Origin: Candidatus Omnitrophota bacterium
Lineage (GTDB): Bacteria > Omnitrophota > Gorgyraeia > Gygaellales > Profunditerraquicolaceae
DNA: 64,000 nucleotides
Reading direction: 5' to 3'
NCBI GenBank assembly: GCA_041663665.1
Contig: JBAYMG010000002.1
Span: 35,509-99,508, forward strand
The position numbers and the translations under genes were made by a program. Each line of letters starts with the position of its first letter. The stretch's first letter is position 1. Below the pieces are notes generated by a model. That model was given only the letters and a program-made list of their open reading frames with translations. It was not told the origin of the DNA and made no database searches. Positions 377 to 16,629 of the stretch are shown here, in pieces.

Positions 377-420
377 AGGTAATTTTTCCCACAGCTAACC
401 CTTTAAACGTAAGCCGCATA

Positions 421-822: not shown

Positions 823-954
823 GTTATATTCCTTTCATTTAATTGTCTATGTAAATTATAGACAATTAAATTTATTTTGCAAGGGAAAAATATCACTTAG
901 GTTTAAAAAACTTAGGGGATTTTAAAGAAACAAGTGCGGTTGGACTACGTAACG

Positions 955-2313
955 TTAATTAATGTTCCGGATAGAAATAATTCGTTTCAATAAGCTGTTT
1001 TTTTGCGAGCCCTTGCCTAAAGAAAGATCACTAACCACTACTCGATTAAGAGCCCGGACAATATCGCCTCGCCATACTTTTTCCCGATAGCCATGCGTCT
1101 CATGTATCACATAGGGCGAACCGGCATACATACCCAAATACAAAAGTATATGGCCTTTTAGCTGCAAAACAGTAACACCGCCGATAGCTTGTTTATGCAG
1201 AATACTTAGTTTCAACCCATTGCCTGATTTTTCCGTAAAAATACCTAAACGCTCTCCAACTTCACCCTGAGCCGAAGAATTTCTTGGCAAAATTATACCG
1301 GTTGTTGCAAAAATTGCCTGGAGAAAACTAGAGCAATCCAATTTACCATCCTTGCCTCCCCAACCATAAGGAGTATCGAGAAACTTAAAAGCCTGCTGAA
1401 TAATATGACGCGGCGTATACGGTAAATACCCCTCATTGACATCTTCCTTCTTCACATAAGCCGGCTGGTTGACAAATTTTCCTTCTTTCCCCTGAAAGGG
1501 AATAAAAATTTTGATTGCTTCAGAATTAATATTTCCGTTAAAAGAGAACCTTGACCCCATTCTCACATAATCAAAATGTTGCGTTAAGGCTGGATCTAAA
1601 AAAATTCCTGTTTTATCGCTAGTCACAACCACAAAAGGTTTTGCTCCCCCAAAACTCTTAAATTCATCAATACTACAAAAGGCAATTCTTTCTTTTTTCG
1701 TCCAGCCCGAACTTGCCGGTGTGTGAGCGTAAGCCCAAACGCCATCCCTGCTTTCATGTAAAATTGCTAAAGGTACACCGATGTCCAAAGAGCTATTCTG
1801 AAGCTGATCAAAAGCAATATCTGCGGGTTCTTGAGTCAAAATTTCTTCAGTTGGCAAAATCCGCTGGTCAGCATAATAACAGATAAACCCATACCGCACA
1901 TTAATTCGGTCGGGTATTGCCTCAAAATTCATCTGCTCTTTTATCCGCCGGTAAAACTTCTTACCTATTCTTTTTGCGTCTCGATTGTAAAGTTTTTGCT
2001 TTGATAGGCTGGTTATTTCTTCCGCTAAAGAAAGAGCTAGCTCTTTACCAGGATAACTGGGACCAATCCGGGTAATGTTCTCCGTGAGTTTGAGCTCATT
2101 TTCAATTTTTGAATTGAATAACGCAATACCTGCGGAATCCAGGATTATTCTATCCGCAAAAGGATGGCGTTTAATCCAAAACCCGGGACTTTGCATCCCT
2201 CTATGCGTATTAGGAATTACATCCGGAGGAGCGTAATACTGTTTTTCTCTAACACCGCATCCCAGCATCAACAGCAAACAAGAAATCAATATAAAACAGC
2301 ATGGTTTCTTCAT
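955..2313 (-). CDS. NlpC/P60 (C40) family lipoprotein peptidase
   Basis: Signal peptide with lipobox (LLMLGCG). C-terminal NlpC/P60 core: DTPYGWGGKDGKLDCSSF (catalytic Cys) and GHILLYLG (His). Confidence 0.7.
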   Translation of the reverse strand: MKKPCCFILISCLLLMLGCGVREKQYYAPPDVIPNTHRGMQSPGFWIKRHPFADRIILDSAGIALFNSKIENELKLTENITRIGPSYPGKELALSLAEEITSLSKQKLYNRDAKRIGKKFYRRIKEQMNFEAIPDRINVRYGFICYYADQRILPTEEILTQEPADIAFDQLQNSSLDIGVPLAILHESRDGVWAYAHTPASSGWTKKERIAFCSIDEFKSFGGAKPFVVVTSDKTGIFLDPALTQHFDYVRMGSRFSFNGNINSEAIKIFIPFQGKEGKFVNQPAYVKKEDVNEGYLPYTPRHIIQQAFKFLDTPYGWGGKDGKLDCSSFLQAIFATTGIILPRNSSAQGEVGERLGIFTEKSGNGLKLSILHKQAIGGVTVLQLKGHILLYLGMYAGSPYVIHETHGYREKVWRGDIVRALNRVVVSDLSLGKGSQKNSLLKRIISIRNIN

Positions 2314-2436
2314 CTTTTTATATTACCTCTATTCTAAAAATGAGAACAAGTTATATTTAAATTGCAAAAAGGCAGGAATTGATAATTGCGTGTGTTAGTA
2401 TAAGTAATAACTATACCTCTAGACACGCAGATAGGT

Positions 2437-2464
2437 ATTATATAATATTAGAGGCAGATATCAA
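2437..2464 (-). promoter_or_regulatory. sigma70-like promoter of the NlpC/P60 gene
   Basis: Minus strand reads TTGATA, 16-nt spacer, TATAAT, about 120 nt upstream of the ATG at 2313. A homologous copy lies at 5095..5122. Confidence 0.5.
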
Positions 2465-2503
2465 GAAATTCAGCTTATTAAAGATAGATTAGTGGAACCT
2501 TTG

Positions 2504-3421
2504 TTACATTTTAGATATTAACTCCCATATAAATAATGTTACGCACAATATAGAAAACAATAAGAAGGGTATTTTCTCAAAAATCCTTCCGGGGTCTTTT
2601 ACAATGGTATTCTCTTCGCAAGCCAAATAGAAAAACCAAACGGTCCAAATAATAACAAATGGTAACAAAATAACCGGATTAACATCATGTTGCGTATAGA
2701 AAATGCCCATTAAACAATAAGAGATACAGAGAGACGTTATCATGAAAAATAGTAATTTCTTCCTGCTATAATAACTCATACTCTTCCGAAAATTTCCTAG
2801 CTGCTCTTTGTCCTGGATCAAGCCGATCTCTCCAAATCTTTTGGAAGACATTAGAAAAATACCGAAAAACCACAAAGCGAATACGATAACTACAGGAAAC
2901 ATCTTGTGGATATCCACAGCGACAGCATACCACCCGATGAGAAACCGTATAGGGCTGTTTAGCGCCTCAGAAATAAAATCTAGAAATGGCCTATCTTTTA
3001 ACCTTAAAGGCTGTAAATTATAAAATAACGCATTCACAAAATACAAAATAAACAATAAGGTTATAAGCCATTTTTTAAGAAAGATGGCGATACCAAATCC
3101 CAACAAATAAATAAACACCGAAGACAAAAAAACACTTACGGGTTTTAACCTTCCGGAAGGCAGCATCCTATTCTTTTTTTGAGGGTGGTATTTATCGTGT
3201 TCCATGTCAGAAATTTCATTAATCCCGTAATTTCCCGAGGAAATTAAACAGCCGGCGACCATCGCAAGCAAAATAGTCCGCCAAGCGTTAAAATCTGGCA
3301 CACGAAGTAATATAACGGCGCTTATCCCTCCCAAAAGAATAAGCAGATTTTGATACCATCTAATTGGCTTGAAAACTGAAAGAAAATCTTTATTTATTGC
3401 CTTAAATATCATTTTTCTCAA
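2504..3421 (-). CDS. UbiA-family prenyltransferase (decaprenyl-phosphate phosphoribosyltransferase-like)
   Basis: 305 aa polytopic membrane protein. PIRWYQNLLIL N-terminal pattern and NxxxDxxxD motif (NEISDMEHD). Confidence 0.65.
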   Translation of the reverse strand: MRKMIFKAINKDFLSVFKPIRWYQNLLILLGGISAVILLRVPDFNAWRTILLAMVAGCLISSGNYGINEISDMEHDKYHPQKKNRMLPSGRLKPVSVFLSSVFIYLLGFGIAIFLKKWLITLLFILYFVNALFYNLQPLRLKDRPFLDFISEALNSPIRFLIGWYAVAVDIHKMFPVVIVFALWFFGIFLMSSKRFGEIGLIQDKEQLGNFRKSMSYYSRKKLLFFMITSLCISYCLMGIFYTQHDVNPVILLPFVIIWTVWFFYLACEENTIVKDPGRIFEKIPFLLFSILCVTLFIWELISKM

Positions 3422-3502
3422 TATTTATTTGGAAGTGTGTAATTATAACTATGCTATAATGTATGAATTCCGGTTTTAAAATATCTTAAGTGCTAAACGC
3501 CC

Positions 3503-4954
3503 ATGGATCGAAAGATAAAAATAGGACTTTTAATATTTGCTCTGTTTAGCCTGGTTTATTTCCTTTCCGTAAGAGGCAACATAGAAATAAGCGATACCGG
3601 CTTTTCCGTACAAACAGCCAAATCAATTGTTACAAAGCATTCTTTATCAATCCAGGAATGCCGTGGAGGCTATTCCTATAAATCAGAAAAAGATGCCAAA
3701 TGTTATTCTAAATTCGGGTTAGGTTTAGCCTTAATATTTACCCCTTATGTACTCTTAGGAAAAATAGTAGCCACCTTAAGTAGCCTACCAGAGGCCCAAA
3801 CCATTAATTTTCTTATATCTTTTTATAATATATTTTTCGGAGCAGGAGCTTGCGTCGTAATGTTCTATATTATCAAATTTTTCGGAGGCTCCGATAGAAT
3901 TTCATTAAATATGGCCTTATTGTTAGGACTTGGAACTTTCTGCTGGCGTTACAGCATCTGGGACTTTTCTGAAGCAGCACAAATGTTTTTTCTCGCACTT
4001 TCTATTTACTGCGTCCTAAGGAATAGCATCAAAAGCCTCTCTTGGGGTGCGTTTTCTTTATGCTGCTTGCTCTTGCTAAAAGCTATCTATATTATTTATA
4101 TTCCTATTTTTATTATCTATATTTTAACAAAAAACAGGCAGGATGCAAAAGATACTTTAACGCGGGCAGGCATGTTTCTTTTAATCATTCTGGCGGGTTT
4201 CAGTCTTATTCTTTTATTAAACTATATTCGATTTGGAGAATTTTTTGAATTCGGCTATGGGTTGGAAGCAAGGGAGTTTTATTTTCTGGGAATCCAAGAA
4301 CATGTAAAAAAATTATTGTACTGGCTTGATAAGGGAGTATTTATTTATAACCCCTTATTTATTCTTGGCATACTGGGATATTGTAAACTATTTAAATTAT
4401 TCCAGAAAGAAGCGATTTTTTTCCTCTCCATTATTACCTTTCATCTCCTTCTTACCTCCATGTGGTATAGTTGGCATGGAGACTGGTCCTGGGGGCCAAG
4501 ATATCTAGTACCAACGGCTCCGCTCTGGCTAGTACCCTGCTTTCTTTTCTTCAACAAAAAGGGTATAGTTAAAATCGTATTAATTTTGTTTATTTTTGTA
4601 TCTTTATCAATACAGATTGTTAGTATTCTCCAAGGCAATCTTGAATACCTTACGATATGCAATACTCACAACCAAGAAGGATTTAAAAAAGGGATGCCGG
4701 CTCAAATTATCGGAGCAGCAATAACTTTAAAACATAAACTTATTAAAAATGATAACGTATACAGCCTCTCGGAGTTTGGAGTAAATTCCAATACGCAGAT
4801 AGATGTTTCTCAGGCTGGTTATAGGGGATTTGATTTTTGGTATCTGCACTTAGCAAGACACTTTAATAAACCTTGGTTAAAATATCTGCCGTTATTATTT
4901 TTGCCTTTTATAGCTATCCTTTTTATCCGCCTTTTTAAAATAACCGCAATATAG
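3503..4954 (+). CDS. GT-C fold integral-membrane glycosyltransferase-like protein (ArnT/PMT-like)
   Basis: 483 aa with more than 10 predicted TM helices. Acidic first periplasmic loop (EISDTGF). Sits next to a UbiA/DPPRT-like gene, as lipid-linked sugar transferases do. Confidence 0.45.
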   Translation: MDRKIKIGLLIFALFSLVYFLSVRGNIEISDTGFSVQTAKSIVTKHSLSIQECRGGYSYKSEKDAKCYSKFGLGLALIFTPYVLLGKIVATLSSLPEAQTINFLISFYNIFFGAGACVVMFYIIKFFGGSDRISLNMALLLGLGTFCWRYSIWDFSEAAQMFFLALSIYCVLRNSIKSLSWGAFSLCCLLLLKAIYIIYIPIFIIYILTKNRQDAKDTLTRAGMFLLIILAGFSLILLLNYIRFGEFFEFGYGLEAREFYFLGIQEHVKKLLYWLDKGVFIYNPLFILGILGYCKLFKLFQKEAIFFLSIITFHLLLTSMWYSWHGDWSWGPRYLVPTAPLWLVPCFLFFNKKGIVKIVLILFIFVSLSIQIVSILQGNLEYLTICNTHNQEGFKKGMPAQIIGAAITLKHKLIKNDNVYSLSEFGVNSNTQIDVSQAGYRGFDFWYLHLARHFNKPWLKYLPLLFLPFIAILFIRLFKITAI

Positions 4955-4985
4955 CTACCCGTGAAAAGGATAGAATTTGCCCCCT

Positions 4986-5022
4986 CTTCTCTAAATAAAA
5001 CCCTCTGTAAGTAAAGTACCTG
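4986..5022 (-). terminator. rho-independent terminator (minus strand)
   Basis: Minus strand: CCCTCTG, 15-nt loop, CAGAGGG, then TTTTATTT. About 70 nt downstream of the promoter-like element at 5095..5122. Confidence 0.5.
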
Positions 5023-5094
5023 CAGAGGGTTAAAAAACATTGGTTGCGCGCATTGGTATAGGTAATAACTGTATCTATCAATACACACAAGCTA

Positions 5095-5122
5095 ATTATA
5101 TAGGAAATTGGGCAGATATCAA
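5095..5122 (-). promoter_or_regulatory. orphan sigma70-like promoter (paralog of the NlpC/P60 promoter)
   Basis: Minus strand TTGATA-16 nt-TATAAT. About 100 bp including downstream leader is roughly two-thirds identical by eye to 2400..2500. No ORF follows; the terminator at 4986..5022 does. Confidence 0.45.
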
Positions 5123-5288
5123 GGAATTGTAGGCTATAAGAGATAGATTTTGTGTCACTTTTGTCACCTTTTTAAAGAACTATATCTCTCTAACTTATTC
5201 GTAAACAGAGAGTTAACGCATGTCACCTCTTTCAGGGGTGACATGCGCCAAAAAAACTACTATTTTTTCACAAAAAGAACAAACATTA

Positions 5289-6326
5289 TTAAACAAGTGG
5301 TTTTAACAATTTCTTTAATACACCTACGTTCTTTAACACAGCTGTGTCTTGAGGATTGACAAAAACAATAAAATTCGCAATGCCTAATAAGTGTTTTAGA
5401 TAATTAGCACGTGTATTTCTTATCCTCTGGAGATGAGAATCTAACCCGAATTTCTGTATATAATACATTTCTTGCCTAAATTTTTTCCGAAGCATCTTAG
5501 AAACCTGCAAATTTTTATTTGTTACTATCCCCGTAACTTCTTGCCTTTGATGAACATGCATTAGACGAGTTTTAGTTTCATTAATAGATAATTTCTCAGA
5601 TGCTAAAACGCTTTTAACAAAATTTATCATTGATCCAGACTTAATAGCACCAGAAAAAGTCAAGTCATCAGAATACCTTGTAAATCGAAAACCATATTTC
5701 TTAGAAAATCCGGCTATTCTTTTATCGATATTCATAGCAATTAAATTGGACAACGCAGGACTAGTAGGAGCTCCTTGAGGTAAACTACCATCTAAACAGC
5801 ACAAATTCGCAAACATTGTTGCAACAGGCTTGCTATACCCGAATTTCCTAAAGAGACTAAAAACTTTCCGGAATTTAATCGAACCGAAAAAGTCTTTTAT
5901 ATCAATCGTGAGCACTTTTTCTTGTCTAAGATGAAATCTGGCATTTTCCTTTATCGATACTCCCGAGACATAGGCTTTTGCATATTTACTACATTCACAT
6001 TTTTCCAAAATTTCCTTTAAAATCCATCTTTGGATTTCCTTTAGGGAAGGTAGCGGTTCCGCAATCTCACGAGAACCACCAGATTTTTTTTTAATAGTAA
6101 AAGTCCTATAAAACCAGTGGGGAGAATTAGACGCCTTTATCAAATATGACAATTTATACCCTACCAATAAAGCCAAATGTTGCTGATTATAAATTATTGG
6201 AAGATTTTGTTTAAAAAGGTAAGCTGCATAATTTAAACATTTATTTATCTGGTCTGTATCAAAACCATTGCGTTCAGCCCCTGCTGTAAACTCTTTCTGA
6301 TATTTTTCCCAAAGAATATTATCCAC
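5289..6326 (-). CDS. Retron-type reverse transcriptase
   Basis: 345 aa. RT motifs LPQGAPTSPALSNL (QGxxxSP), RYSDDLTFSG (YxDD), and the retron-specific VTG motif (RQEVTGIVTN). Lies directly downstream of a structured ncRNA bounded by inverted repeats. Confidence 0.85.
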   Translation of the reverse strand: MDNILWEKYQKEFTAGAERNGFDTDQINKCLNYAAYLFKQNLPIIYNQQHLALLVGYKLSYLIKASNSPHWFYRTFTIKKKSGGSREIAEPLPSLKEIQRWILKEILEKCECSKYAKAYVSGVSIKENARFHLRQEKVLTIDIKDFFGSIKFRKVFSLFRKFGYSKPVATMFANLCCLDGSLPQGAPTSPALSNLIAMNIDKRIAGFSKKYGFRFTRYSDDLTFSGAIKSGSMINFVKSVLASEKLSINETKTRLMHVHQRQEVTGIVTNKNLQVSKMLRKKFRQEMYYIQKFGLDSHLQRIRNTRANYLKHLLGIANFIVFVNPQDTAVLKNVGVLKKLLKPLV

Positions 6327-6338
6327 AACATCTCCATA

Positions 6339-6580
6339 CTAATGAATCTCGATAACCCCATTACCAATCAGTTTCTTCATCTTACACTAGAACAAATCAA
6401 AATTTGTTCTAGTGTCGTGCCGGCTTTAGCTGGCACGGAATGAAGATTGTGAGCGCAACTCCAGTTGCGCGAAACAGTCTTCATTCCAAGGCTTGAAAGC
6501 AAGTTCCTCTCAGGTTGACGACTCGCCAACCCTTGTGACCATAGCCACAATGAGCTAATGGGGTTATCGAGATTCATTAG
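6339..6580 (-). ncRNA. Retron msr-msd non-coding RNA
   Basis: A perfect 25-bp inverted repeat (6339..6363 vs 6556..6580; a1/a2) brackets about 190 nt. The interior holds nested hairpins: ggaatgaagattgt...acagtcttcattcc enclosing gcgcaact/agttgcgc, plus gtgccggc/gctggcac and cactagaacaaat/atttgttctagtg. Sits immediately 5' of the RT gene. Confidence 0.7.
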
Positions 6581-6887
6581 GCATCTTTCTTTTATCAGGT
6601 ATATATATTTCGTCTTTACTTAATTTTCTAACCCTATATTCTTCTTGGAGGCTAATCCATCCTTCTGTGTTTTTCCTACCAAATTTTTTATTTAATGCTG
6701 CTAACTTTTCTAAACCGCTTCCTGTTAAAACTAATTGGTCTCCCTTATTTTCAGCATAACCTTCTTTTTCAATAGAATGAATCAAGCTAGCGATTTGAGA
6801 ATATTCGAGTCCGGCTTTCCTCAAGCTATAAACTCCTCCATTATTCTTAAGGATCTGTAATAATAAAATAAGGTATTGTTCTTGCAT
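6564..6887 (-). CDS. Small winged-helix DNA-binding protein (retron accessory)
   Basis: 107 aa. Its stop codon lies inside retron repeat a1. In an operon between the PRTase-like gene and the ncRNA. Confidence 0.5.
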   Translation of the reverse strand: MQEQYLILLLQILKNNGGVYSLRKAGLEYSQIASLIHSIEKEGYAENKGDQLVLTGSGLEKLAALNKKFGRKNTEGWISLQEEYRVRKLSKDEIYIPDKRKMPNESR

Positions 6888-6892
6888 ACAAG

Positions 6893-7756
6893 TTAACCTG
6901 CTGAAAAAGGTGCAATAAATTTTTTCCCATTCTCCATGGAATTCTCACACCAATATACAGGGAAAGTATTATTGGGCGTTCTTGACATCATAGCCACAAG
7001 CGCTTCCGTCCTATTGTAACCAAAATTATATTTTTTCTTCACTTTTATTAAACTTTCAATAGATTCCATAATCCTTGATTTTGTTTCTCGTTCTGGATTT
7101 AAATAACTATCACTTATTCCTCTTTTTCTTATTATGCGTGAAAAAACTCTGATTCCAAGCCTGCTTAATCGTTGCACCCCCATTTCTTGTGCTACAAGAG
7201 AAACAACGAGAATCTTATTGTAATCTGTAATCCCAGCAAGACGACACATATCCTTCACTGCGGTTTCTCCAGTCTCTCCCGATCCAATAAAATCATCAAC
7301 TAAAATTAACATTGCCGGGATAAAATTTATGTCCTTGGGGATTGCCAAAGGACTGTCTATAAGACATATTTTCTTACCGCGAAATAAATCGTTGTTCGAA
7401 AGGTGTGATATTTTAATAAGATACCTAGTAAAAATGGCGCTTTCATTTCTAGTCTCATTTTCTCTTTTCTCCGGATAAGACTGTAATGGCAAAATATAGA
7501 TTTTATTACAATCCACCAATAATTTTTTTTCAATCATAAATAAAGAAGCATACAAATAAGATTCATATTTATTAAGCGTAACCCACAGAAATTCTCTAGT
7601 TAATTCAAAAATTAAACCTTGCTGTTCTGGGCTAAAGTGTTCTAACGCCTGGCAAAAACGATCATATTCTTCCCTATGATCTTCAATAGACCATCCGTTT
7701 TTATTAAATATTTCTGTGAGCTTTTCTAGGGCAACTAGACTGATATTCGTTTTCAT
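6893..7756 (-). CDS. Phosphoribosyltransferase (PRTase)-like retron effector
   Basis: 287 aa. Type I PRTase PRPP-binding motif ILVDDFIGSGETGETAV. 5-bp gap to the wHTH gene. Confidence 0.7.
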   Translation of the reverse strand: MKTNISLVALEKLTEIFNKNGWSIEDHREEYDRFCQALEHFSPEQQGLIFELTREFLWVTLNKYESYLYASLFMIEKKLLVDCNKIYILPLQSYPEKRENETRNESAIFTRYLIKISHLSNNDLFRGKKICLIDSPLAIPKDINFIPAMLILVDDFIGSGETGETAVKDMCRLAGITDYNKILVVSLVAQEMGVQRLSRLGIRVFSRIIRKRGISDSYLNPERETKSRIMESIESLIKVKKKYNFGYNRTEALVAMMSRTPNNTFPVYWCENSMENGKKFIAPFSAG

Positions 7757-7833
7757 TATTAAAGATCCACGTTCAATGTAAAAAAATTATTTGCCACTAC
7801 ATACGCATACCAAATATAATTATACCTCAGAAA

Positions 7834-8499
7834 TTAATGATAACAAGCGCACAAAAACTGCATAAGTACTGACATTTCAAATAAAACTCCATCAAATCCC
7901 TTATCTTTCTTTAAGTACTTATTATACGCCTCTTCCCCAGATACTAAATGGTATTTCTTCTTCTTAGAATCCCATTCAAACTTGATCCTTGTCTTATCTG
8001 GGGCTCTTGTGGACAGGGTTGAGAATGTCTTTTTTAAGCTCCTTGCAAGTTCTTCTTCATTCCAACCGTGTTTCTTACAATTCTTAAGAAGATATTTTTC
8101 ACGAAGCTCTCTAATGTAATCTGTCATCATTTCATCTTCCGTAACTGGCTTATAGGAAGAAGGTAATAAATCATCTATGGTTTTCTTATCATAAACAAAC
8201 CTCTGATACTCTGTTATCTTATTCTCAGAAATCCAGTTATCTATGCTTCTCTTATGAAAGACTACTTTGCTCCTAGGTAGCTTAGAAAATGGCATTTTTT
8301 GGCCATTTACCCAGGTTTTTATGGTGCTAAGAGGCACACGCAGGTAATCCGCCACTTCTTCTTCATTAAACACCTGTCGGCTTGTTTTCTTGATTAGGGA
8401 GGCTTCCTGGAGGGATCTTTGATCTAAAAACTCACCACAATGCTTGCATTTAATGGCTTCTTCCTGGATTTCTTCTGCGCAGAAAGGGCATCTCTTCAT
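7834..8499 (-). CDS. Zn-ribbon plus excisionase-type HTH protein (hypothetical)
   Basis: 221 aa. N-terminal CPFC...CKHCG zinc ribbon. HTH pattern VADYLRVPLSTIKTWVNG. 4-bp overlap with the upstream P-loop gene. Confidence 0.45.
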   Translation of the reverse strand: MKRCPFCAEEIQEEAIKCKHCGEFLDQRSLQEASLIKKTSRQVFNEEEVADYLRVPLSTIKTWVNGQKMPFSKLPRSKVVFHKRSIDNWISENKITEYQRFVYDKKTIDDLLPSSYKPVTEDEMMTDYIRELREKYLLKNCKKHGWNEEELARSLKKTFSTLSTRAPDKTRIKFEWDSKKKKYHLVSGEEAYNKYLKKDKGFDGVLFEMSVLMQFLCACYH

Positions 8500-9014
8500 C
8501 TTCCAAACAGAATATTGGTTCGCTGTTGAATTATTCTTGCATTGAAATAGGTAAAGTTTCTTGCATTAAGCGAAAAAGGCTCTATGTTTAGGTCTAGCCT
8601 ATTTTGCATGTCTCTGGGGATAACTCCATTATTATTCCTTCCTGGGTTGATAACAAATGAGCGTATCTCAAAACCACCTATCCTCCGCAAAAGACTGAAT
8701 ATTTGTTCAATTCTTATACGCTTCTTAGAATCAGTAGGTTGAATAGCCATTACTACACCCAGGGCATGTCTATCTTCAAGCACTGCTCTTAAAAATCTCC
8801 ACAACTGACTAATCGTAGCCTTGGGGTTTTCTTGGAAAGAATCTGGAATAACATATAATCTACGCAGCGGATTAACCGTTAGATTTTCCATTATATACAC
8901 GCGTAAGTCTCTAAAAAAATTACCTGTTCTTTTTCCACCACAACCCGTAAGACTTCGTATAATTGCGCTTTTACCAGACTTGCTATACCCAATAATTGCA
9001 ATAAATTTTTTCAT
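8496..9014 (-). CDS. Small P-loop NTPase (hypothetical)
   Basis: 172 aa. Walker A IAIIGYSKSGKSAI. Translationally coupled to 7834..8499. Confidence 0.5.
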   Translation of the reverse strand: MKKFIAIIGYSKSGKSAIIRSLTGCGGKRTGNFFRDLRVYIMENLTVNPLRRLYVIPDSFQENPKATISQLWRFLRAVLEDRHALGVVMAIQPTDSKKRIRIEQIFSLLRRIGGFEIRSFVINPGRNNNGVIPRDMQNRLDLNIEPFSLNARNFTYFNARIIQQRTNILFGR

Positions 9015-9023
9015 TATTAACTC

Positions 9024-9785
9024 CTATTTTAGCTCTACCCAACCATTAGGTTTTACAAATAAAACTTTTTTGTGATCAATAATGTAATCTAGTTCAAAAA
9101 ATTTATCGATATTAATAATATCGCTATCAGTAAAAATTTTATAAATCAGGAATTGTGGCTTTAATGAACAAACAAAAAATACAACATTTTTATTACTCTC
9201 AAATTTTATTTTTTTAGAAGAAATTAACTTTTTCAAATCTCCGGCATAATGAAGCAGGAGACCTTTTGTATTTTTTGTATTTGTTTTTAACGTACCTCTG
9301 TTAACACTTTCAAGCACATGAAACAACACGGCATCTTGCTGGGGTTCTTTGATCAATTTTTCAAGGTCTTGTATACAGGTTACTGTATGGGCTTTGAATT
9401 CTACTATTGTACTTCTTTTATATTTCTCATTCCCAATATCATAAATAGATAGATCTATAGACCCGGAACTTTCAACCCCACATTTACTTTTAAAATTATA
9501 TTTTCTTACTGTGGGTGTTTCAACAGAAAACCTTATTCCTCTTTTTTCCAGTTCAAAGGCAAAAAGAAATCTGGCTTCTTGTTCACTTATCCTAGTATAT
9601 GGTTTTCCTTTATTTATTGCCTTGGGAAAAATTAAATTTGTATAATCATCTGCATGACAGTATAATTCGTTTTTCATATCAAAAAGCTTCTTGGACACAG
9701 AAATGGCTATTTCTTTCAATTCAGATATCTTTTCTTCGTTTATCATTTTGTCTTTATCCATGCAAATATTAATTATATTTTCCAT
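9024..9785 (-). CDS. Hypothetical protein, possible PD-(D/E)xK nuclease fold
   Basis: 253 aa. Putative nuclease triad pattern SEQEARF...GSIDLSIYD...TIVEFKAH (E, D, ExK). Weak. Confidence 0.35.
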   Translation of the reverse strand: MENIINICMDKDKMINEEKISELKEIAISVSKKLFDMKNELYCHADDYTNLIFPKAINKGKPYTRISEQEARFLFAFELEKRGIRFSVETPTVRKYNFKSKCGVESSGSIDLSIYDIGNEKYKRSTIVEFKAHTVTCIQDLEKLIKEPQQDAVLFHVLESVNRGTLKTNTKNTKGLLLHYAGDLKKLISSKKIKFESNKNVVFFVCSLKPQFLIYKIFTDSDIINIDKFFELDYIIDHKKVLFVKPNGWVELK

Positions 9786-9824
9786 CAGTATAATACTGCT
9801 TATACACTTATGCGCCTTTAATGC

Positions 9825-11012
9825 TTAAAAATCAACATCTCTAAGAAAACTTGTGATTTTAGATGACTCCTTATCATCAATGCCATCCCACTTATTTTTA
9901 ATGTTAATTTTTTCAGGAGGTCTTGAAAAACTTGCAATATAAGACTTGATGTCATCAATTTGCTTCTTCGTTTTTCCCACAGCAGTTCCATGTATCTCAA
10001 TATCATGAGACAAAGGAGTGCCGTAATTTCCCTTATCCAAACCAAGAGCTTGTATATTTTGTTCATGATAAGCAAAACCTAGAAAATAAACCCGCTTTGC
10101 TTTTTGGAATATTTCCCTATAGTCTTCTTTTTCCAAAGGAAGCTCATGACTAATTCTAATCATTTTTGCCCGCTCGATGATTTCCTTGGCAAAAGTACTT
10201 CTAGACTGATCATTAATAAATTGACTTACTCCAAAATCCGCCTCACTAGCACCAAATGTTCCCACTTTGTCATATAATGGGAAAAGGTCTCTGAAAGTAA
10301 CAGGAGTAAAATCATTGATTACTTTTGGTTGTTTCCTGTGCGCCTGCTGATAATTAAATTGCCAAGACATTATACCCAGCTTCCCATGAACATGTTGAAT
10401 AGAGATTTCATCAAAAAAACTTGCAATCTTATTCTCATAATCATGTAAATTATATTGGGCCTTAATTGCTTTAAACAAAAAGATTTCTAATGAACGGTCG
10501 TAATTAAAAGTGATAATTTTTAGCCGGTTATTCTTAAGTTTTTTAAAATCTTTTCCAGTGTCATCTATGAGTCTTTCCCATAAATATCTATACCACCCCC
10601 ATTTTAATCCAAAATTTTTATTTCCTTGAAACCGTCTTATGTCTTCACACTCGGATAAAGCAAAAAGTATAAAAAGTTTTCCTATCAAGCTATATTTTGT
10701 AGGAGATAATAAAAAATCGTCAATTGAAGGAGGATTTGCATCCTCCAAGTCTGCGGCGAATTTTTGGATATCATCAACAGAATAGGAACCGTTATCTTCC
10801 TTTTTTTCTCCGGAAATATCTAATAAACGCCAAAGTAGATGAGAATTTCGCAAGGAATGATTGACAATGTCTTTGGGAGACCGCAAGTGAAGGCCTATAG
10901 TTTCTCCTGCGGCTAAATCAAGTATGTTTTTTATTAGCGTTTTCCCTAAAGGAAATCCCACTTCGTTACTTGAACCAGCTCCAAGAATCAAAACTGTTTC
11001 CTTATCAATCAT
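9825..11012 (-). CDS. SIR2_2-family (defense-type SIR2-like) protein
   Basis: 395 aa. N-terminal VLILGAGSSNEVGFPLGKTL matches the SIR2_2 'LGAGxS...G.P' Rossmann start. C-terminal RVYFLGFAYHEQN repeat of the FLG motif. Confidence 0.65.
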   Translation of the reverse strand: MIDKETVLILGAGSSNEVGFPLGKTLIKNILDLAAGETIGLHLRSPKDIVNHSLRNSHLLWRLLDISGEKKEDNGSYSVDDIQKFAADLEDANPPSIDDFLLSPTKYSLIGKLFILFALSECEDIRRFQGNKNFGLKWGWYRYLWERLIDDTGKDFKKLKNNRLKIITFNYDRSLEIFLFKAIKAQYNLHDYENKIASFFDEISIQHVHGKLGIMSWQFNYQQAHRKQPKVINDFTPVTFRDLFPLYDKVGTFGASEADFGVSQFINDQSRSTFAKEIIERAKMIRISHELPLEKEDYREIFQKAKRVYFLGFAYHEQNIQALGLDKGNYGTPLSHDIEIHGTAVGKTKKQIDDIKSYIASFSRPPEKINIKNKWDGIDDKESSKITSFLRDVDF

Positions 11013-11112
11013 ATTCTACTCTTGGCTACTCTCAACCTTCCAACTTTATCTCTTATATTATACATTTTCTAAATTAAATTCATTTATCAAAAAACTCAGA
11101 AAACTATAGATC

Positions 11113-14100
11113 TTAATTGCGCATCTCTTCGTCTCTATCTAAATGCTCTTTAATTATTACACCGATACTTTCGCTGCATTTTTTTATAATATCTTTCAGG
11201 CTAGCTGATTTTGCTTTAAGATATAAGCTTTCGAATGTATCTTTCAATTCTAATAAGACTGGAGGAACTTGACCAACTGGCGCAGACCAACCATCTTCAG
11301 GATAGGTCTTATGAAAAAATAGAGTTTTTACTTCATTCTCTAAATTGAGTTTTATAGCCTCCTCTCCAATTCCAATAAAAATTTCTTGGTTTTCTTTAGA
11401 TAATGTAAGAAATTCCATACAATACAAAGCATTCTGGACATCTTTTTGCCCCAATAGTTCCCGTATAAAAGCAACATGATAATTTGCTCCCGACCCCTTG
11501 TCGATAATATCTACTACTGTTTTAACTAAGCCCTTCAAATATAAATGCCCATACTTTTCTTCCTTTTCCCACTTAATAACACGTTTAATAAATTTTGTGT
11601 AATCATCGTAAGAATGGATTACTTCTCTCAGTGCTGTAATACCCTCAAATGGTATAACATAGAATCTATCTTCTCCAGATAGTTGTTTTTGTAATTCAAA
11701 TCTATTCTCAACAAAAATTAAGAGCTCATCAACATCTGTTATGCAGAATTTTAACAAATCTTGTTCATGCCATTCAAACTTAAGACTTTTTTTTAACATC
11801 TCAATAATTTTAACTCTAAATTCTTTAGTTTTCGGACTTTCCACTTTAATATCATTTTTAAGGCTGTGGACGAAGAAATCCACTGCGTCTGTAAATTCTT
11901 TAGCAGGATCTGACGTTTTACTTATCATCATAATGATAAACTCGATACATTCATCGAAATTTCCTGTTTGTTTTGAAATAAAATAAAGATTTCTAATAAT
12001 GCCAGGATACCACTCTTGTTTACCATCTTGAATCAACCTGATAATCCAATCCTGCCAAGGAACATTATTAATAGCTTTATCAATTAACCACAAGAAGTTA
12101 GAAATTTTGTTATAGGAAACGCTGGATAAGCTAGCAAAAATTTCGTTTGCCAATCGCAATAAATGACCTTCTTGAATATTAACAAGGGTATAATCAATTT
12201 GGTTTTGGAACATTTCTGTTATGTTGCTCCAGAATAAATCATTGTTCCGAATTTCTTTAAAGGCTTTTGGGTTGATTTTGACCCAACAATTGAGAAATAT
12301 TACACCACTCCAGCTTTGGCTATTAACAATAAGTTTTCCTAAATCCACCAAAAAATCGACAATCGATACCGGATCTCTGTATTTACTATTTAATTGTTGA
12401 ACTATGTTCTCAAAATCTTCTTCTTTCCTATTCCAACGATCAAGTCTACCGTTATGCACAAACCACTCCCAACGTTTATCTTCAGGAGCATTACTTTCAA
12501 CCTCACTAAAATCATCTATTATAAATTCTTCGGCAGCAAAGGCTCGAAATATTAAATATTCTGGAGTTCTAGGTATTATTCTCAAATATTTTGCGACATT
12601 TTCTGCTCCTTCTCGTTTAGTTGCCCAAAAACGAACAAACATATCTTCAATAGCGCTCAAAAGCTTAAAATCTTTTGTTTTGCTTATTATGGTTCCGACC
12701 TTTTCAACTGCTGCTCTAGTTTCTTCAATAATTCTAGGATAAAGAGGAAACTCAGATGAAGGCTTACCCAGACTCATCGCTCTATGACCAATATGACGGA
12801 CTACCTGTAAAGCATTTTGCCTCACCGATAAAGAATCATCATCTAACATCTTATAAAGTATTTCTATCGCTTTATCCCGCATGGCAATTACCTGGGGAGA
12901 ATTTTTCAAATAACGTTCTCCAAATACGAATTTATCCATATAGGAATGTGTGTACTCATGCGTACCCGCAAGAACTTCATTTAGTCCTGACTTCAAAAGT
13001 TCCACTCCCCGCGGTTTATCATCTTTCATCCAAGTCTCCATTAATAAAAGTCCGGAGAGGATATTCTCAAGATCATTTGATATAGGACAAACAAACTGTG
13101 AAATCAAAGTTTCAATGTGATAATTACTATATGATCCCTTTTTTACTAAGCCGCTAATATCATAAATAAAACTTAATACTTGTTCTCTAGCAGTACTAAC
13201 CGCCATTAGTCTTAAAAGAACCGGCCCATAGTCATCAGTGGAAAGTTCATACCTACTTGATTTTAGATATGGATTTTCTTCTTCGGGAGCAATTATCTTT
13301 TTATAGCTCCGCAACAATCTCATTGATTCTTCTGGTATAAGCGTAGCTACATCCTCAATAAATTTTAGATGCTGCCTTCTTTCGCTTAACGGCGTGATCG
13401 CCGCGTCTTGTTCCCACTTTAAAGCAATTTCAGACAAACAGACCTTTACTTTATTAATTTCACCATATCGAGAAGCAGAGCCTATGTTTGAAAAGACATT
13501 ATTAGGAGTAATGGTAATCCAATGCAAAATAATACCCCTAAGAAACGTTTCCTCCAAAAACTCTAGTTTATAACCTAGATATATATCTCCTTTCATATCA
13601 GTATTAAATCTTACACTATTGCCAACCTTTCTAAGAATGCCTACTTTTATTAGTCGTTCTATAGCGCCAGATATTAACTCCAGTTTCACCTCAAAATTTG
13701 TTGTCAAATTCTCCAGTATATTTTTGTCACCTATGTGAAAAGGAACTATACACGTTAGAGTAAATATAAATAGTTCAAAATCAATATCAGCGAATCCAGC
13801 TAAGCATTTCTTTGTATCAACTATTATGTCCTCGATGAACTTCTTTCTCAACGTAACAAAATCGGCAATCTTAGTCCCCTTGAGTTTATTCCCGATCCAT
13901 ACTATTAAATAAGGATTAGAATTATAATGAACAATCTGCTCCTCATCTTCAACGGGATTTTTACCAACAACTAATCTCAACAACTCCGTCAGCTCTTCCT
14001 TATTCCATTCCTTAATTTGGAACTCTTGCATATATTGAAAACATTTCATTTCTTGTACAACTTGAATAATAATATAAACTCCCGAGCTTCTTGTGGCAAA

Positions 14101-14952
14101 AATTACCTTTACATCCACGCCACTTTCTTTTAAGAAATGAAGCAGCGGACGAAGTTCTTCAACATAACGATCTGCGTCATCAACGATTAATAAATATTTC
14201 TTATCTGAACTTATTTCAGATTGGAGGGCTTCAATATTTGCAAAACCTGCCCGAACAAACCAAATTTGTCTTTCTCTATCAATACCCCGAACAAATAGAG
14301 AAAGATCTCGAAGAAGATGCGACTTTCCCTGCCCTCCGTGTGCATAAAGATGAAATATTTTTTGATCTTTTGAGCCCAAAAAACCACTTATACTGCGTTT
14401 GCATTCATTTAATGCAGGTCTTTCAATTGTAGAAGGAATAATTTCACGCTCGAAACTATTATAGTAATAACCGCTATCGACCAAAGCTGGATATGGATAT
14501 TCTTTAAAAAAAAGAAATCTTAAATAGGGATATCTTATAATGCGCATTTCAAGATTTTCTCGAGACCAAATCTCTAATGTTTCCACGTCTCCCTTATTAA
14601 TAGATTGTAACTCTAAAACATGCTCTATTCTTAACTCAGCATTAGTAGATATACGCAAATGGTTCACCTTATTGTCCTTAGCTTTCTTCAATTCTTCTTT
14701 AACGACTGTTTTTAAATACTCTCCTGCTTCGTCAAACGATTTTTTGGTCCATTTTGACTGTACTGAAAATACTCCTGAATCCTTTTCTAATTGATAGTAT
14801 CCTTTATAATAACCATCCCATCCTCCATCGGCACCGATATATGGACTTGATGGGATAAATCCTGGAGAATCACATTCTAAGGCAAATAAATGATTAGTTA
14901 ACCTCTGAAAAATTTTATCATTATCTATAAGATTCCAATTAAGCATCCTCAC
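11113..14952 (-). CDS. Mrr-like nuclease / STAND-type P-loop NTPase / C-terminal repeat protein (Avs-like)
   Basis: 1279 aa. N-terminal GADGGWDGY...VQSKW resembles the Mrr_cat GxDGGxDG...QxK motif. Walker A LYAHGGQGKSHLL and Walker B LLIVDDAD. About 900 aa of helical repeat region follow. Confidence 0.65.
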   Translation of the reverse strand: MRMLNWNLIDNDKIFQRLTNHLFALECDSPGFIPSSPYIGADGGWDGYYKGYYQLEKDSGVFSVQSKWTKKSFDEAGEYLKTVVKEELKKAKDNKVNHLRISTNAELRIEHVLELQSINKGDVETLEIWSRENLEMRIIRYPYLRFLFFKEYPYPALVDSGYYYNSFEREIIPSTIERPALNECKRSISGFLGSKDQKIFHLYAHGGQGKSHLLRDLSLFVRGIDRERQIWFVRAGFANIEALQSEISSDKKYLLIVDDADRYVEELRPLLHFLKESGVDVKVIFATRSSGVYIIIQVVQEMKCFQYMQEFQIKEWNKEELTELLRLVVGKNPVEDEEQIVHYNSNPYLIVWIGNKLKGTKIADFVTLRKKFIEDIIVDTKKCLAGFADIDFELFIFTLTCIVPFHIGDKNILENLTTNFEVKLELISGAIERLIKVGILRKVGNSVRFNTDMKGDIYLGYKLEFLEETFLRGIILHWITITPNNVFSNIGSASRYGEINKVKVCLSEIALKWEQDAAITPLSERRQHLKFIEDVATLIPEESMRLLRSYKKIIAPEEENPYLKSSRYELSTDDYGPVLLRLMAVSTAREQVLSFIYDISGLVKKGSYSNYHIETLISQFVCPISNDLENILSGLLLMETWMKDDKPRGVELLKSGLNEVLAGTHEYTHSYMDKFVFGERYLKNSPQVIAMRDKAIEILYKMLDDDSLSVRQNALQVVRHIGHRAMSLGKPSSEFPLYPRIIEETRAAVEKVGTIISKTKDFKLLSAIEDMFVRFWATKREGAENVAKYLRIIPRTPEYLIFRAFAAEEFIIDDFSEVESNAPEDKRWEWFVHNGRLDRWNRKEEDFENIVQQLNSKYRDPVSIVDFLVDLGKLIVNSQSWSGVIFLNCWVKINPKAFKEIRNNDLFWSNITEMFQNQIDYTLVNIQEGHLLRLANEIFASLSSVSYNKISNFLWLIDKAINNVPWQDWIIRLIQDGKQEWYPGIIRNLYFISKQTGNFDECIEFIIMMISKTSDPAKEFTDAVDFFVHSLKNDIKVESPKTKEFRVKIIEMLKKSLKFEWHEQDLLKFCITDVDELLIFVENRFELQKQLSGEDRFYVIPFEGITALREVIHSYDDYTKFIKRVIKWEKEEKYGHLYLKGLVKTVVDIIDKGSGANYHVAFIRELLGQKDVQNALYCMEFLTLSKENQEIFIGIGEEAIKLNLENEVKTLFFHKTYPEDGWSAPVGQVPPVLLELKDTFESLYLKAKSASLKDIIKKCSESIGVIIKEHLDRDEEMRN

Positions 14953-14983
14953 CCCTATTGTCTTGGTTACAGTTCAAAAAACA

Positions 14984-15023
14984 ATAAAACCTTCGTCTGC
15001 TTATTAAGCAAACGAAGGTTTTT
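14984..15023 (-). terminator. rho-independent terminator (bidirectional-looking) after the 15219..16247 gene
   Basis: Stem ccttcgt/acgaagg with T-runs on both strands. Confidence 0.45.
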
Positions 15024-15218
15024 CTTATTTTAAAGTGGAGGTTCCCCCTTCAAACTGCACCACTATAGTATCTTTTATTAACACCTTTAATGATACCACT
15101 AATTTAATACGCGTCAATAGAAATACCTTATCCCTAAAAATATTAGTTATGGCCCTATTTCATTACGAGACATTATTGCTAGGGAATAGGTAAGAATAAA
15201 TTCTCCCACGGTAGGTAC

Positions 15219-16247
15219 TTATTTAACCATTCCTTTTATTGCTTCTACAGCCCCAGCGCATTCATAAAGCGGGTATTTTTGACGCATCCGAAGGATATTA
15301 AGGTAGGCTTTCAATTTAAACCCTGTACTCTGCTTACGGAAACAGGCATACCGTAAACCATCTGTAATAATTAAAGATCCACAATGCTCCCGTCCCTTAG
15401 CGCGCGCATACTTGCTTACCTGATTGAGGTGTTCAAAAACAGAACTACCCTTAGCCTTTGTTTCGATAATGCAGCTTAAGAAAGAATCCTTGCGGGTTAT
15501 GCGCCTAAATAAGGCGATATCAATATTGCGCCATTCAATAGTCGTCTCTTTATGCGTCCAGTCAAGTGCACGTAAGAATGGAATAACTATATGGGTAATG
15601 GTTTCCTGCTCAGAAGGCCATTCGCCTAGCTTTTCCCTCTTTCCGTACCATTCACCGATCTTACGAATCGACTTGAGAGCAGAAACTACCATCTTTGCGC
15701 GCTCCTTGGAAAATCCTTGCGCTATAAGCTGTCTTTTGACTTCTTCATCCGTAAGACTGATCGATGTCTTGGGTAATGCCTTAAGCTTACGCTCTAACTG
15801 CTTTGAAGAAACCTTAAGCTGCCTTATCCAACGCAAAACTTGAAAATTATTCACGCTGGCAAATGTCCTTACCTGCGCTCCTAAAGTTCTTGGAAGAAAC
15901 CGCGTTCCCGCATTAGGAAACCATCTTACTCTGCGTGTATGCTGAATATGATAATCATCCACATCGGCAAACTCCTCAAGTATCATAGGATGATCATCAG
16001 CAATCACACCTACAGCGATAATTTTGGCTGTACCAAGCCTTGCCACCACTATATCCCCTTTCTTTGCAGAATGGTAAAAGCGCCGAATACTGTTCTTTAT
16101 ATCACCGTATTTGGAATAGTTCTTCTCATTGAATAATCCTTCGTCACCCGGGCCAATAGCCATTAGGTCGTATTTTAAGAAAAGATCCCCGTAGGAGCGC
16201 TGATTACTGCCGGTGCCAACTTGCCAAACCCTTCCCTTTATATCCAT
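15219..16247 (-). CDS. Hypothetical protein (G+C-richer; possible PD-(D/E)xK C-terminal domain)
   Basis: 342 aa. No confident motif. C-terminal IDIALF...CIIETKAKG could be a D...ExK. Composition stands out from neighbours. Confidence 0.3.
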   Translation of the reverse strand: MDIKGRVWQVGTGSNQRSYGDLFLKYDLMAIGPGDEGLFNEKNYSKYGDIKNSIRRFYHSAKKGDIVVARLGTAKIIAVGVIADDHPMILEEFADVDDYHIQHTRRVRWFPNAGTRFLPRTLGAQVRTFASVNNFQVLRWIRQLKVSSKQLERKLKALPKTSISLTDEEVKRQLIAQGFSKERAKMVVSALKSIRKIGEWYGKREKLGEWPSEQETITHIVIPFLRALDWTHKETTIEWRNIDIALFRRITRKDSFLSCIIETKAKGSSVFEHLNQVSKYARAKGREHCGSLIITDGLRYACFRKQSTGFKLKAYLNILRMRQKYPLYECAGAVEAIKGMVK

Positions 16248-16388
16248 GCCAACCTCCTTCTAGAGTATCAAGATAATCATCCCATAACAATCATTGCCAT
16301 ATAATCTGGCAAATAGCAAGTTAAAAATGATTATAGCACCGTAGGCACACGGTGTAAAGGTAAACGAAGATATGCGATAATTGCACCT

Positions 16389-16607: not shown

Positions 16608-16629
16608 ATTTAAATCAACAAACTGTCCA

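Follow-up and report, generated by a model that had tools for sequence, protein, structure and literature searches.

Defence hotspots of mobile elements have been described in P2/P4 prophages and satellites, in pipolins, and as the core defence hotspots of Pseudomonas (e.g., PMC11551731, PMC10250203). In these hotspots, conserved backbone genes flank a position at which unrelated defence systems are exchanged. Searches of the literature returned this general concept, and nothing on the three gene families described below or on mobile elements of Omnitrophota.

The DNA analysed here (the window) is a stretch of 64,000 nucleotides from a Candidatus Omnitrophota MAG. It contains an integrated element of about 28 kb (roughly 5.0-33.2 kb), which carries a serine recombinase and probably has one end beside a tRNA-Gln gene. 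The element is like the known hotspots in being integrative and recombinase-bearing. It differs from them in that its hosts are uncultivated Omnitrophota; its backbone includes TerL/ParB-MTase genes besides a large serine recombinase; its anchor is a single Zn-ribbon/HTH gene, with cargo that varies on both sides; and no cassette repeats of the integron type, nor any other intergenic element that recurs, were found in 4900..16700, and no att-like direct repeats at the presumed ends of the element, which share chance 11-mers only.

Three genes of this element, A, B and C (7834..9785), had been described in an initial annotation as an uncharacterized three-gene module. This stretch is likely to be the junction of variable cargo (A and B) with a conserved backbone gene (C), rather than a single system. 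A and B would each be a solitary member of its own patchily distributed, unannotated family, travelling independently, and each would be an accessory gene in its own right, connected with defence or restriction-modification. The cargo of this element would then comprise the STAND gene, the SIR2-like gene, A and B upstream of C, and a type III-A retron downstream.

Organization of the locus and of the element

The features of the element are listed in Table 1. The initial annotation had described A, B and C as co-directional genes on the minus strand, with a 4-bp overlap of B and C, within an uninterrupted run of minus-strand genes, and all of this is borne out. The ORFs lie precisely where they had been placed, the TGA stop codon of B and the ATG of C form the sequence ATGA, and the gene run extends from 5289 to 16247. 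The stop codon of A and the start codon of B are separated by a 9-nt spacer, which contains a GGAG Shine-Dalgarno sequence. The true start of A is possibly M14 (position 9746), where the N-termini of the A family align. Since full-length homologues form a family around each of them, A, B and C are real genes rather than chance ORFs.

Table 1. Positions of the features of the integrated element in the window
Feature	Position	Strand	Identification
Type III-A retron, complete	5289..7756	minus	fills cargo slot downstream of C
RT	5289..6326	minus	PADLOC RT_III-A 1.6e-146
Retron ncRNA	about 6339..6580	minus	inverted repeat and RNA fold
Winged-helix protein	6564..6887	minus	PADLOC WH_III-A 1.5e-29
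PRTase	6893..7756	minus	PADLOC PRTase_III-A 1.6e-72
Gene C	7834..8499	minus	221 aa; ORF call
Gene B	8496..9014	minus	172 aa; ORF call
Gene A	9024..9785	minus	253 aa; ORF call
Weakly SIR2-like protein, 395 aa	9825..11012	minus	PADLOC SIR2 E 1e-3, N-terminal; no Pfam match
STAND NTPase, 1279 aa	11113..14952	minus	upstream cargo; Pfam nSTAND_NTPase5 2.3e-10
Cro/C-protein-like HTH	16389..16607	plus	backbone; Pfam
TerL-like	16630..18294	minus	backbone; Pfam; tblastn 47% to related elements
HTH protein, 279 aa	18291..19130	minus	backbone; Pfam; tblastn 46-62%
ParB-MTase	18916..20181	minus	backbone; Pfam; tblastn 39%
Large serine recombinase	31156..32799	plus	Pfam Resolvase, Recombinase, Zn_ribbon_recom
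tRNA-Gln	33133..33206	minus	ARAGORN and Rfam

The base composition of the locus is a mosaic: the GC content is 0.287 for A, 0.368 for B, 0.375 for C, 0.34 for the STAND and SIR2-like genes, and 0.45-0.47 for the TerL and ParB-MTase genes. A terminator scan found a strong site ahead of the STAND gene (15022..14986) and no terminator-like site on the minus strand from the STAND gene to C; promoter-like and terminator-like sites occur at the frequency expected by chance. One promoter-like site, at 7846..7819, lies ahead of the retron. Given this tight packing and the lack of a terminator-like site from the STAND gene to C, co-expression and a lineage-specific functional link are possible. A scan of 1..34000 with Rfam gathering thresholds matched the tRNA-Gln only.

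The flanks of the three genes had been read as retron and SIR2 genes. The first of these is now specified as a type III-A retron; the second is less secure, since the SIR2 assignment comes from weak N-terminal matches in PADLOC. The ncRNA of the retron is bounded by a perfect 25-nt inverted repeat (a1/a2, 6339-6363 and 6556-6580), the only strong one in 4900..16700, and has a predicted fold of -118.7 kcal/mol (z = -11).

The serine recombinase beside the tRNA-Gln gene (31156..33206) is the probable end of the integrated element, and the C-bearing island of another locus, L052, is likewise bounded by a serine recombinase. The TerL, ParB-MTase and HTH genes are common to three further loci (L010, L012 and L051), as found by tblastn and in the gene-family table. 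A and B had no tblastn match in plasmid and phage collections, and C matched the phage collection through its Zn ribbon only. Scans of IMG/VR gave no relatives of A or B and, for C, matches to the Zn ribbon only; thus, A, B and C are not detectably phage-borne.

Protein families of A, B and C

Each of the three proteins has the domain character proposed in the initial annotation (a PD-(D/E)xK-like protein, a small P-loop NTPase, and a protein with a Zn ribbon and an excisionase-type HTH), and the statement that no named system could be recognised also stands for A and B, which have no family match in Pfam, PADLOC, NCBIfam or PHROG, beyond noise at the level of the P-loop for B.

The A family comprises 59 clusters of full-length homologues. 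In 57 sequences of the family the residues E89, D111, E129 and K131 are invariant (E89...D111...E129-x-K131), which is the constellation of the PD-(D/E)xK superfamily (Mrr, Cas4, viral nucleases). The AF2 model of A (pLDDT 87.7) has a restriction-endonuclease-like alpha/beta fold, in which these residues sit on the strands E85-96, E106-118 and E121-132. Its top match in BFVD is a viral PD-(D/E)XK nuclease (E 1.7e-4, prob 1.0), and it also resembles Cas4 and DUF2800 proteins. In the PDB there was no significant match (the best structure match had an E-value of 0.016), and a profile search of PDB sequences was empty. The differences from described PD-(D/E)xK families are a long N-terminal helix, a beta-rich C-terminal extension, the conserved motifs LIFP, RISEQE and ETPT, and the lack of a match in Pfam, NCBIfam or PHROG. 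A, whose family of some 60 clusters is unannotated, is read as a stand-alone cargo gene with a predicted PD-(D/E)xK nuclease fold, and would cleave nucleic acid by means of E89, D111, E129 and K131.

B belongs to a family with 100 representatives at E<=1e-3 (54 of these at E<=1e-10), which was detected by a full HMMER search and missed by a k-mer search, as the latter returned only B itself from 5.8 billion proteins. B is a divergent member within this family, and its nearest relative among 1.8 billion representatives has 51% identity. The Walker A sequence GYSKSGKS satisfies the G1 pattern of TRAFAC small GTPases (Ras/Rab/Arf, FeoB, Der/EngA), i.e., GxxxxGK[ST]; in the alignment of the family, G9, G14, K15, S59 and Q61 are invariant and S16 is nearly so. 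The AF2 model (pLDDT 89.3) shows, over about 170 residues, the alpha/beta fold of Ras-like proteins, and Foldseek matched it to Rab8, Arf1, Rheb and the G-domain of FeoB (prob 0.97-1.0, E 2e-4 to 2e-3), with TM-scores of just 0.4-0.52. A search of PDB sequences with the B profile gave matches limited to the P-loop region. Unlike TRAFAC small GTPases, the B family lacks the G3 motif DxxG and the G4 motif [NT]KxD, having neither a conserved Asp nor NKxD: its consensus has SSPQE after strand 3 in place of DxxG, and AIQP after strand 5 in place of NKxD. A further conserved motif, LDGRRFAxxNA, is specific to the C-terminus of the family. B is read from its sequence and model as a small Ras-like P-loop cargo gene of an unannotated family with a non-canonical G3 and G4, and is predicted to act as a nucleotide-dependent switch.

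C is conserved to a greater extent. Its orthologues form about 55 full-length clusters of 47-84% identity, 16 of which have at least 73%, and the named orthologues are all from Omnitrophota-type MAGs. The mean column identity in the alignment of the family is 63%, and C4, C7, C18 and C21 are invariant. In Pfam, C matches Zn_ribbon_3 and, over residues 43-93, HTH_17 (35.4 bits, cutoff 27). It thereby resembles the HTH proteins of the excisionase/MerR type, although the excisionase model TIGR01764 was just missed (27.8 against 28.8 bits). It differs from these in that the HTH is preceded by a Zn ribbon at the N-terminus and followed by a conserved, unique C-terminal domain of 120 residues, for which a profile search of PDB sequences revealed no relative. 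C was also considered as MAD1 of the MADS system and rejected, as NF047737, with its cutoff of 80, scored 30.8 bits and covered the HTH alone; the PADLOC mad1 model (E 1e-4) likewise matched residues 41-92 only. The regulators BrxR and CapW are DNA-binding proteins that adjoin many different defence systems. C is similar to them in being a predicted DNA-binding protein beside varied defence systems, and different in having no WYL domain. Judging from its domains, C would be the element's own DNA-binding factor, most likely acting in the regulation of transcription or as a recombination-directionality factor.

Independent families and a defence hotspot marked by C

Every ORF of 53 retrieved loci was searched with an HMM for each of the three families; tblastn was used as well. 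The A family was confined to its own 9 loci and the B family to its own 26, and full-length C occurred at no loci but its own 8. This sample of contexts is modest, corresponding to about 6 independent loci for A, about 18 for B and 6-7 for C, many of them on short contigs. At none of the 43 other loci with any homologue were two of the three families present, so A-B-C is not a conserved module and the three-gene unit proposed earlier falls. The initial annotation had suggested a comparison of gene neighbourhoods and had named scattered homologues as an observation against a module; homologues of A and B are indeed scattered in other contexts, and conservation of A-B-C was not seen. The difference in conservation between A or B (51% identity at best) and C (16 clusters of at least 73%) was also counted in favour of independence.

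Homologues of A and B stand alone in varied contexts and in several phyla. Some are in restriction-modification or Abi islands (L005, L014, L018 and L038), and others adjoin RecA, QueC, Ldh or luciferase-like genes. Most B homologues are beside unrelated genes (RecA, a RecQ fragment, QueC, DUF2130 and one gene whose translation we take to be NrdR), and the clustering of neighbours gave no recurrent partner for B or for C. At two loci there is a nuclease-like neighbour: Mrr lies directly upstream of the B homologue in L018, and in L014 this position is occupied by a protein of 197 aa that has a D...IEFK motif. These two cases hint at a looser association of a nuclease with B. The 197-aa protein was examined as a relative of A; it aligns only weakly, across D...EFK (hhalign prob 1.5%), and is retained as no more than a hint. 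The genes 3' of A homologues (237 aa in L003 and L009; 258 aa in L001) were rejected as cryptic relatives of B (hhalign prob about 0.1%).

C is the sole family common to all seven C loci in the gene-family table, and DNA similarity between the loci is confined to its ORF, from the ATG to the stop codon. Its direct neighbours on either side are unrelated from one locus to the next. Upstream are found AbiEii, a gene with a faint Mrr_cat match, DUF2779/Cas4, sigma-70 and a 157-aa protein; downstream are found AAA_15/21 with TIR, a tyrosine integrase, AbiE, CBASS II and a 665-aa protein. The cargo families DUF2779, AbiEii and Lactamase_B shift their position relative to C from locus to locus. Thus, the C gene marks a defence-cargo hotspot with variable slots on both sides, and most of the recognisable neighbours are defence genes. 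In L051 and L052, an unrelated DUF2779 gene overlaps the start of C by 4 bp, so the overlap of B with C is non-specific. Compact co-transcription of cargo with C would account for the close packing of the genes and for the overlap at ATGA, without a dedicated partnership.

Alternative explanations and implications

The closest competitor of this junction of cargo and backbone, and an unlikely one, is that A and B, perhaps joined by C, constitute a new, lineage-specific defence system in which, by analogy with McrBC and Septu, invading DNA would be cut by the nuclease, and the NTPase would serve for sensing or licensing. The close co-directional spacing, the GGAG before B and the ATGA into C would fit this, as would the position amid a defence island and the B homologues in restriction-modification loci, downstream of Mrr (L018) or of the possible D...EFK protein (L014). 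However, the two families are together at no other locus; the contig of the nearest A relative (51% identity) has neither B nor C and its other neighbours are different; the GC contents of A and B are 8 points apart; most B homologues adjoin unrelated genes; and B, unlike McrB, does not belong to the AAA+ GTPases, its PADLOC match to LmuB being at the level of the P-loop (E 0.01). A wider unit, in which A and B would be effectors or accessories of the STAND and SIR2-like genes in one four-gene, operon-level system, is more improbable still. STAND/Avs-type systems often have nuclease or SIR2 effectors, and the placing of the terminators, with a strong one before the STAND gene and none from there to C, would suit a single operon. 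Against this, tblastn found no relative of the STAND or SIR2-like genes in any of the 35 loci that carry A or B homologues, and the GC content of these genes (0.34) is unlike that of A (0.287).

The initial annotation had also suggested a pairing of B with C, of the toxin-antitoxin-like or the sensor-regulator kind, or a role for all three genes as extra accessories of the retron. Both suggestions are largely refuted and there is very little chance that either is correct. The ATGA overlap and the predicted DNA-binding HTH of C, which many antitoxins and regulators have, speak for a pair; but the adjacency of B and C is not conserved, as no B-family gene lies upstream of the C orthologues in seven other contexts, the DUF2779 gene gives the same overlap, and C is widely conserved whereas no close B homologue was found anywhere searched. 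As for the retron, A-B-C adjoin it directly and are transcribed in the same direction. However, all three proteins canonical for a type III-A retron are present, as is the ncRNA, which makes it complete in the absence of A, B and C; the PADLOC retron models match 5289..7756 alone, and none of the component models matches A, B or C; a retron is present at only one of the seven C loci, C orthologues adjoining CBASS, AbiE, TIR and integrases; and no RT was found in the loci of A and B homologues. Since the retron is complete and C orthologues are beside other genes, A, B and C are not retron accessories.

The proposed three-gene defence system is thus not upheld, which spares the cloning of the wrong unit, and in defence islands tight spacing and 4-bp overlaps are no evidence of partnership. 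What emerges in its place is two families that are unannotated in the databases, a putative PD-(D/E)xK nuclease and a Ras-like NTPase without DxxG and NKxD, both sometimes inside restriction-modification loci. C is a highly conserved anchor for a two-sided hotspot of defence cargo in an uncultivated phylum and could be used for discovery through guilt by association. Perhaps, at rather long odds, C organises the hotspot, directing or regulating the exchange of defence cargo at both ends of its own gene, with A and B as new single-gene defences or as a loose pair of nuclease and NTPase. If this is true, the use of C as bait would bring to light a large pool of new defence genes in Omnitrophota.

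Distribution of the three gene families

Genes A, B and C lie side by side on the minus strand, with coordinates exactly as the initial annotation gave them. They are genuine genes, because a full-length homologue family exists for each: 59 homologue clusters for A, about 55 full-length orthologue clusters for C, and for B 100 representatives, which an exhaustive HMMER search returned at E<=1e-3. A 9-nt spacer, with GGAG inside it, separates the stop of A from the start of B, and the stop of B and the start of C share ATGA. A strong intrinsic-terminator-like hairpin (17-bp stem and T-run) lies between the gene for a 342-aa protein and the STAND NTPase gene, which points to the start of a transcription unit immediately before STAND. 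Because no terminator-like site was found on the minus strand within the run from STAND to C (in a scan where such sites were overall at chance level), while the strong one precedes it, this run may, judging from sequence, be co-transcribed.

Features of the window and of loci fetched for comparison (L numbers)
Feature	Coordinates	Strand	Remarks
a1/a2 inverted repeat	6339-6363 / 6556-6580		between WH and RT genes
Probable msr-msd RNA	6339..6580	-	enclosed by a1/a2
66-aa ORF	6377..6577		probably spurious
Gene C	7834..8499	-	221 aa
Gene B	8496..9014	-	172 aa
Gene A	9024..9785	-	253 aa
SIR2-like gene (tentative)	9825..11012	-
Terminator-like hairpin	14986..15022	-
342-aa protein	15219..16247	-
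Cro/C-protein-like HTH	16389..16607		divergently transcribed; recurs with C
TerL-like protein	16630..18294		recurs with C
HTH protein	18291..19130		279 aa (222-279 aa across loci); recurs with C
ParB-MTase	18916..20181		recurs with C
Candidate conjugation cluster	21062..23331	-	ThiF/E1-like protein at 21903..22790
HATPase_c protein	24651..25538
Type III R-M pair	25599..30286	-	Res 25599..28406; Mod 28403..30286
Large serine recombinase	31156..32799		DUF2924 gene upstream
tRNA-Gln	33133..33206		adjoins serine recombinase
237-aa gene after A homologue, L003	3569..4282
237-aa gene after A homologue, L004	3517..4230
237-aa gene after A homologue, L009	3409..4122
Noncoding element 3′ of C, L010	8667..8819
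Noncoding element 3′ of C, L051	8667..8845

The three genes had been read as an uncharacterised module. Neighbourhoods were fetched for homologues of A (L001-L009), B (L014-L039) and C (L010-L013 and L050-L053), and every ORF of all 53 loci fetched was searched with profile HMMs of the A, B and C families; tblastn was also used. A was restricted to the A loci, B to the B loci and full-length C to the C loci; neither approach found a locus outside the window with two of the families, and the A-B-C neighbourhood was conserved nowhere across the 53 loci. Conservation is also discordant: 16 clusters of C orthologues have at least 73% identity, and the homologue searches returned no relative of A or B above 51%. 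The GC contents differ sharply (0.287 for A, 0.368 for B, 0.375 for C). Thus, the three families are independent of one another, and the module is not supported. Nor is the proposed NTPase-regulator pair of B and C, as B never occurs in the C loci fetched; the overlap of B and C is no evidence of partnership, because in L051 and L052 an unrelated DUF2779 gene likewise overlaps the start of C by 4 bp. A minority reading pairs B instead with a nuclease-fold gene upstream, as Mrr lies directly upstream of the B homologue in L018, and a 197-aa protein with a D...IEFK motif, which may have a nuclease fold, does so in L014; the alignment of the latter with the A family is weak (hhalign probability 1.5%).

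The suggestion that the three are retron accessory genes fared no better, as the type III-A retron downstream of C has its full set of components without these genes, and no retron adjoins C orthologues at other loci. PADLOC matched PRTase_III-A (E 1e-72), WH_III-A (E 1e-29) and RT_III-A (E 1e-146). A perfect inverted repeat of 25 nt encloses an RNA with a predicted fold of -118.7 kcal/mol (z = -11), which is probably the msr-msd ncRNA with the a1/a2 stem expected for a retron; an Rfam scan did not detect it.

Genes A and B as members of unannotated families

The domain calls made initially for all three proteins were right. No model in Pfam, PADLOC, NCBIfam or PHROG matched A, and its family is unannotated. 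In an alignment of 57 sequences, P54, R65, S67-E70 (RISEQE), E89-P91-T92 (ETPT), S107, D111, E129, K131, D140 and K143 are invariant, and include the classic E...D...ExK constellation. AlphaFold gave a confident model (pLDDT 87.7, pTM 0.86), with the invariant residues on consecutive strands. Foldseek gave no significant match in the PDB (nucleases are frequent among the weak matches); among predicted viral structures the top match was an annotated PD-(D/E)XK nuclease (E 1.7e-4, prob 1.0), followed by Cas4, DUF2800 and RecU-like proteins. The PD-(D/E)xK call is thus borne out in both motif and fold, and A is predicted to cleave nucleic acid via E89, D111, E129 and K131.

Homologues of A are solitary. 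In L005 the homologue is part of an R-M/AbiE island that also has ResIII helicase, DNA methylase, Cas4/DUF2779 and AbiEi/AbiEii; those in L003 and L009 lie near an REase-ARP gene, and those in L002 and L008 amid housekeeping genes. In one subclade, which includes L003, L004 and L009, the A homologue is directly followed, with a 4-bp overlap, by a conserved, uncharacterised 237-aa gene, unrelated to B; these could be a different two-gene unit.

B is a small P-loop NTPase of Ras-like fold whose G3 and G4 motifs are non-canonical. Its family, whose members have about 160-190 residues in the full HMMER scan, has an invariant P-loop (G9, G14, K15), a conserved SSPQE where Ras-like GTPases have DxxGQ, AIQP where they have NKxD, and LDGRRFAxxNA in the C-terminal part. 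The model is confident (pLDDT 89.3) and matches Rab, Arf, Rheb and the FeoB G-domain (prob ~0.99, modest TM-scores of 0.4-0.52). The window's B is divergent, with at most 51% identity to any relative, and a k-mer-based search of 5.8 billion proteins returned B alone. Hosts of homologues include Kiritimatiellales, Acidobacteriota and one betaproteobacterium. Some homologues are in or next to R-M loci: flanked by hsdS and hsdR, along with an Abi_2 gene (L014), after HsdM and Mrr (L018), or beside an Eco57I-like enzyme (L038). Others adjoin RecA, a RecQ fragment, QueC, DUF2130 or what is, in our reading of the translations, presumably NrdR; clustering of neighbour genes gave no recurrent partner. 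Neither family was found in the plasmid, phage and IMG/VR collections searched. B would act as a nucleotide-dependent switch, and both A and B would be stand-alone cargo tied to defence or R-M.

Gene C and the mobile-element backbone

C combines a CxxC...CxxC Zn ribbon with an HTH_17 excisionase/MerR-type domain, which scores above the Pfam threshold, and with a C-terminal domain of about 120 residues conserved family-wide (mean column identity 63%), which has no detectable relatives among PDB sequences. The MADS MAD1 and TIGR 'excise' models match its HTH only, below their cutoffs. In an all-against-all comparison, C was the sole gene family common to the seven C loci compared, and its immediate neighbours are unrelated from one locus to the next. 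Upstream of C lie B in the window, a 157-aa protein (L010), AbiEii (L012), a protein with a faint Mrr_cat match (L013), DUF2779/Cas4 (L051) and a 388-aa protein after a sigma-70 gene (L053); downstream lie the retron in the window, a 147-aa and then a SIMPL-domain protein (L010), AAA_15/21 then TIR (L012), a tyrosine integrase (L013), an AbiE-like pair (L050), a complete type II CBASS (L051) and a 665-aa protein (L053). In DNA alignments, similarity between loci starts at the ATG of C and ends at its stop codon. C is thus an invariant anchor flanked by two slots in which cargo, mostly recognisable defence genes, is exchanged. Just 3′ of C, the otherwise unrelated contexts of L010 and L051 share about 90 nt of conserved noncoding sequence, absent from the window, with a hairpin GTCCCGAG...GGAC and then AAAACCTTCG; it could be a small RNA or regulatory site.

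Four other genes recur in C loci at variable distances from C, i.e., a backbone common to several loci. This gene set is shared by the window and L010 (39-47% identity); the 279-aa HTH protein is possibly a small terminase. The segment is phage-like, with no capsid or portal genes visible. Large serine recombinases bound the island in the window and in L052. The recombinase of the window, together with the adjoining tRNA-Gln, probably marks the boundary of an integrated element of about 28 kb, whose presumed ends showed no att-like direct repeats. Variable neighbours, recurrent backbone genes and serine recombinases, taken together, make C a backbone gene of an integrative-element family, whose named members are from Omnitrophota MAGs. 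C would be a DNA-binding factor that belongs to the element itself: it would either regulate cargo or element genes or act as the recombination-directionality factor of the serine recombinase.

Other genes of the window

The gene called SIR2 is tentatively so assigned: PADLOC SIR2 models match weakly at the N-terminus (E 1e-3, residues 4-33, GAGSS), and Pfam gave no match. The 342-aa protein, encoded in the first of the cargo positions that follow the backbone HTH gene, has weak PADLOC PDC-S02 and HSDR_N_2 matches and is a candidate for another uncharacterised defence gene. The ThiF/E1-like protein, with PADLOC E1-E2 and weak BilD matches, has an unannotated gene on either side (275 aa and 182 aa); together they are a candidate defence cluster for ubiquitin-like conjugation (Bil- or Cap2-like). 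The type III R-M pair (MTase_III 2.7e-69, REase_III 6e-17 in PADLOC) is next followed by the HATPase_c protein.

The A-B-C interval is ordinary in kind: in a mobile element laden with defence genes, cargo adjoins a backbone gene. A role of C as organiser of the hotspot, or of A and B as new defence genes, is unlikely. The interval yields two unannotated families, A and B, and C may prove useful as a hotspot anchor in an uncultivated phylum.
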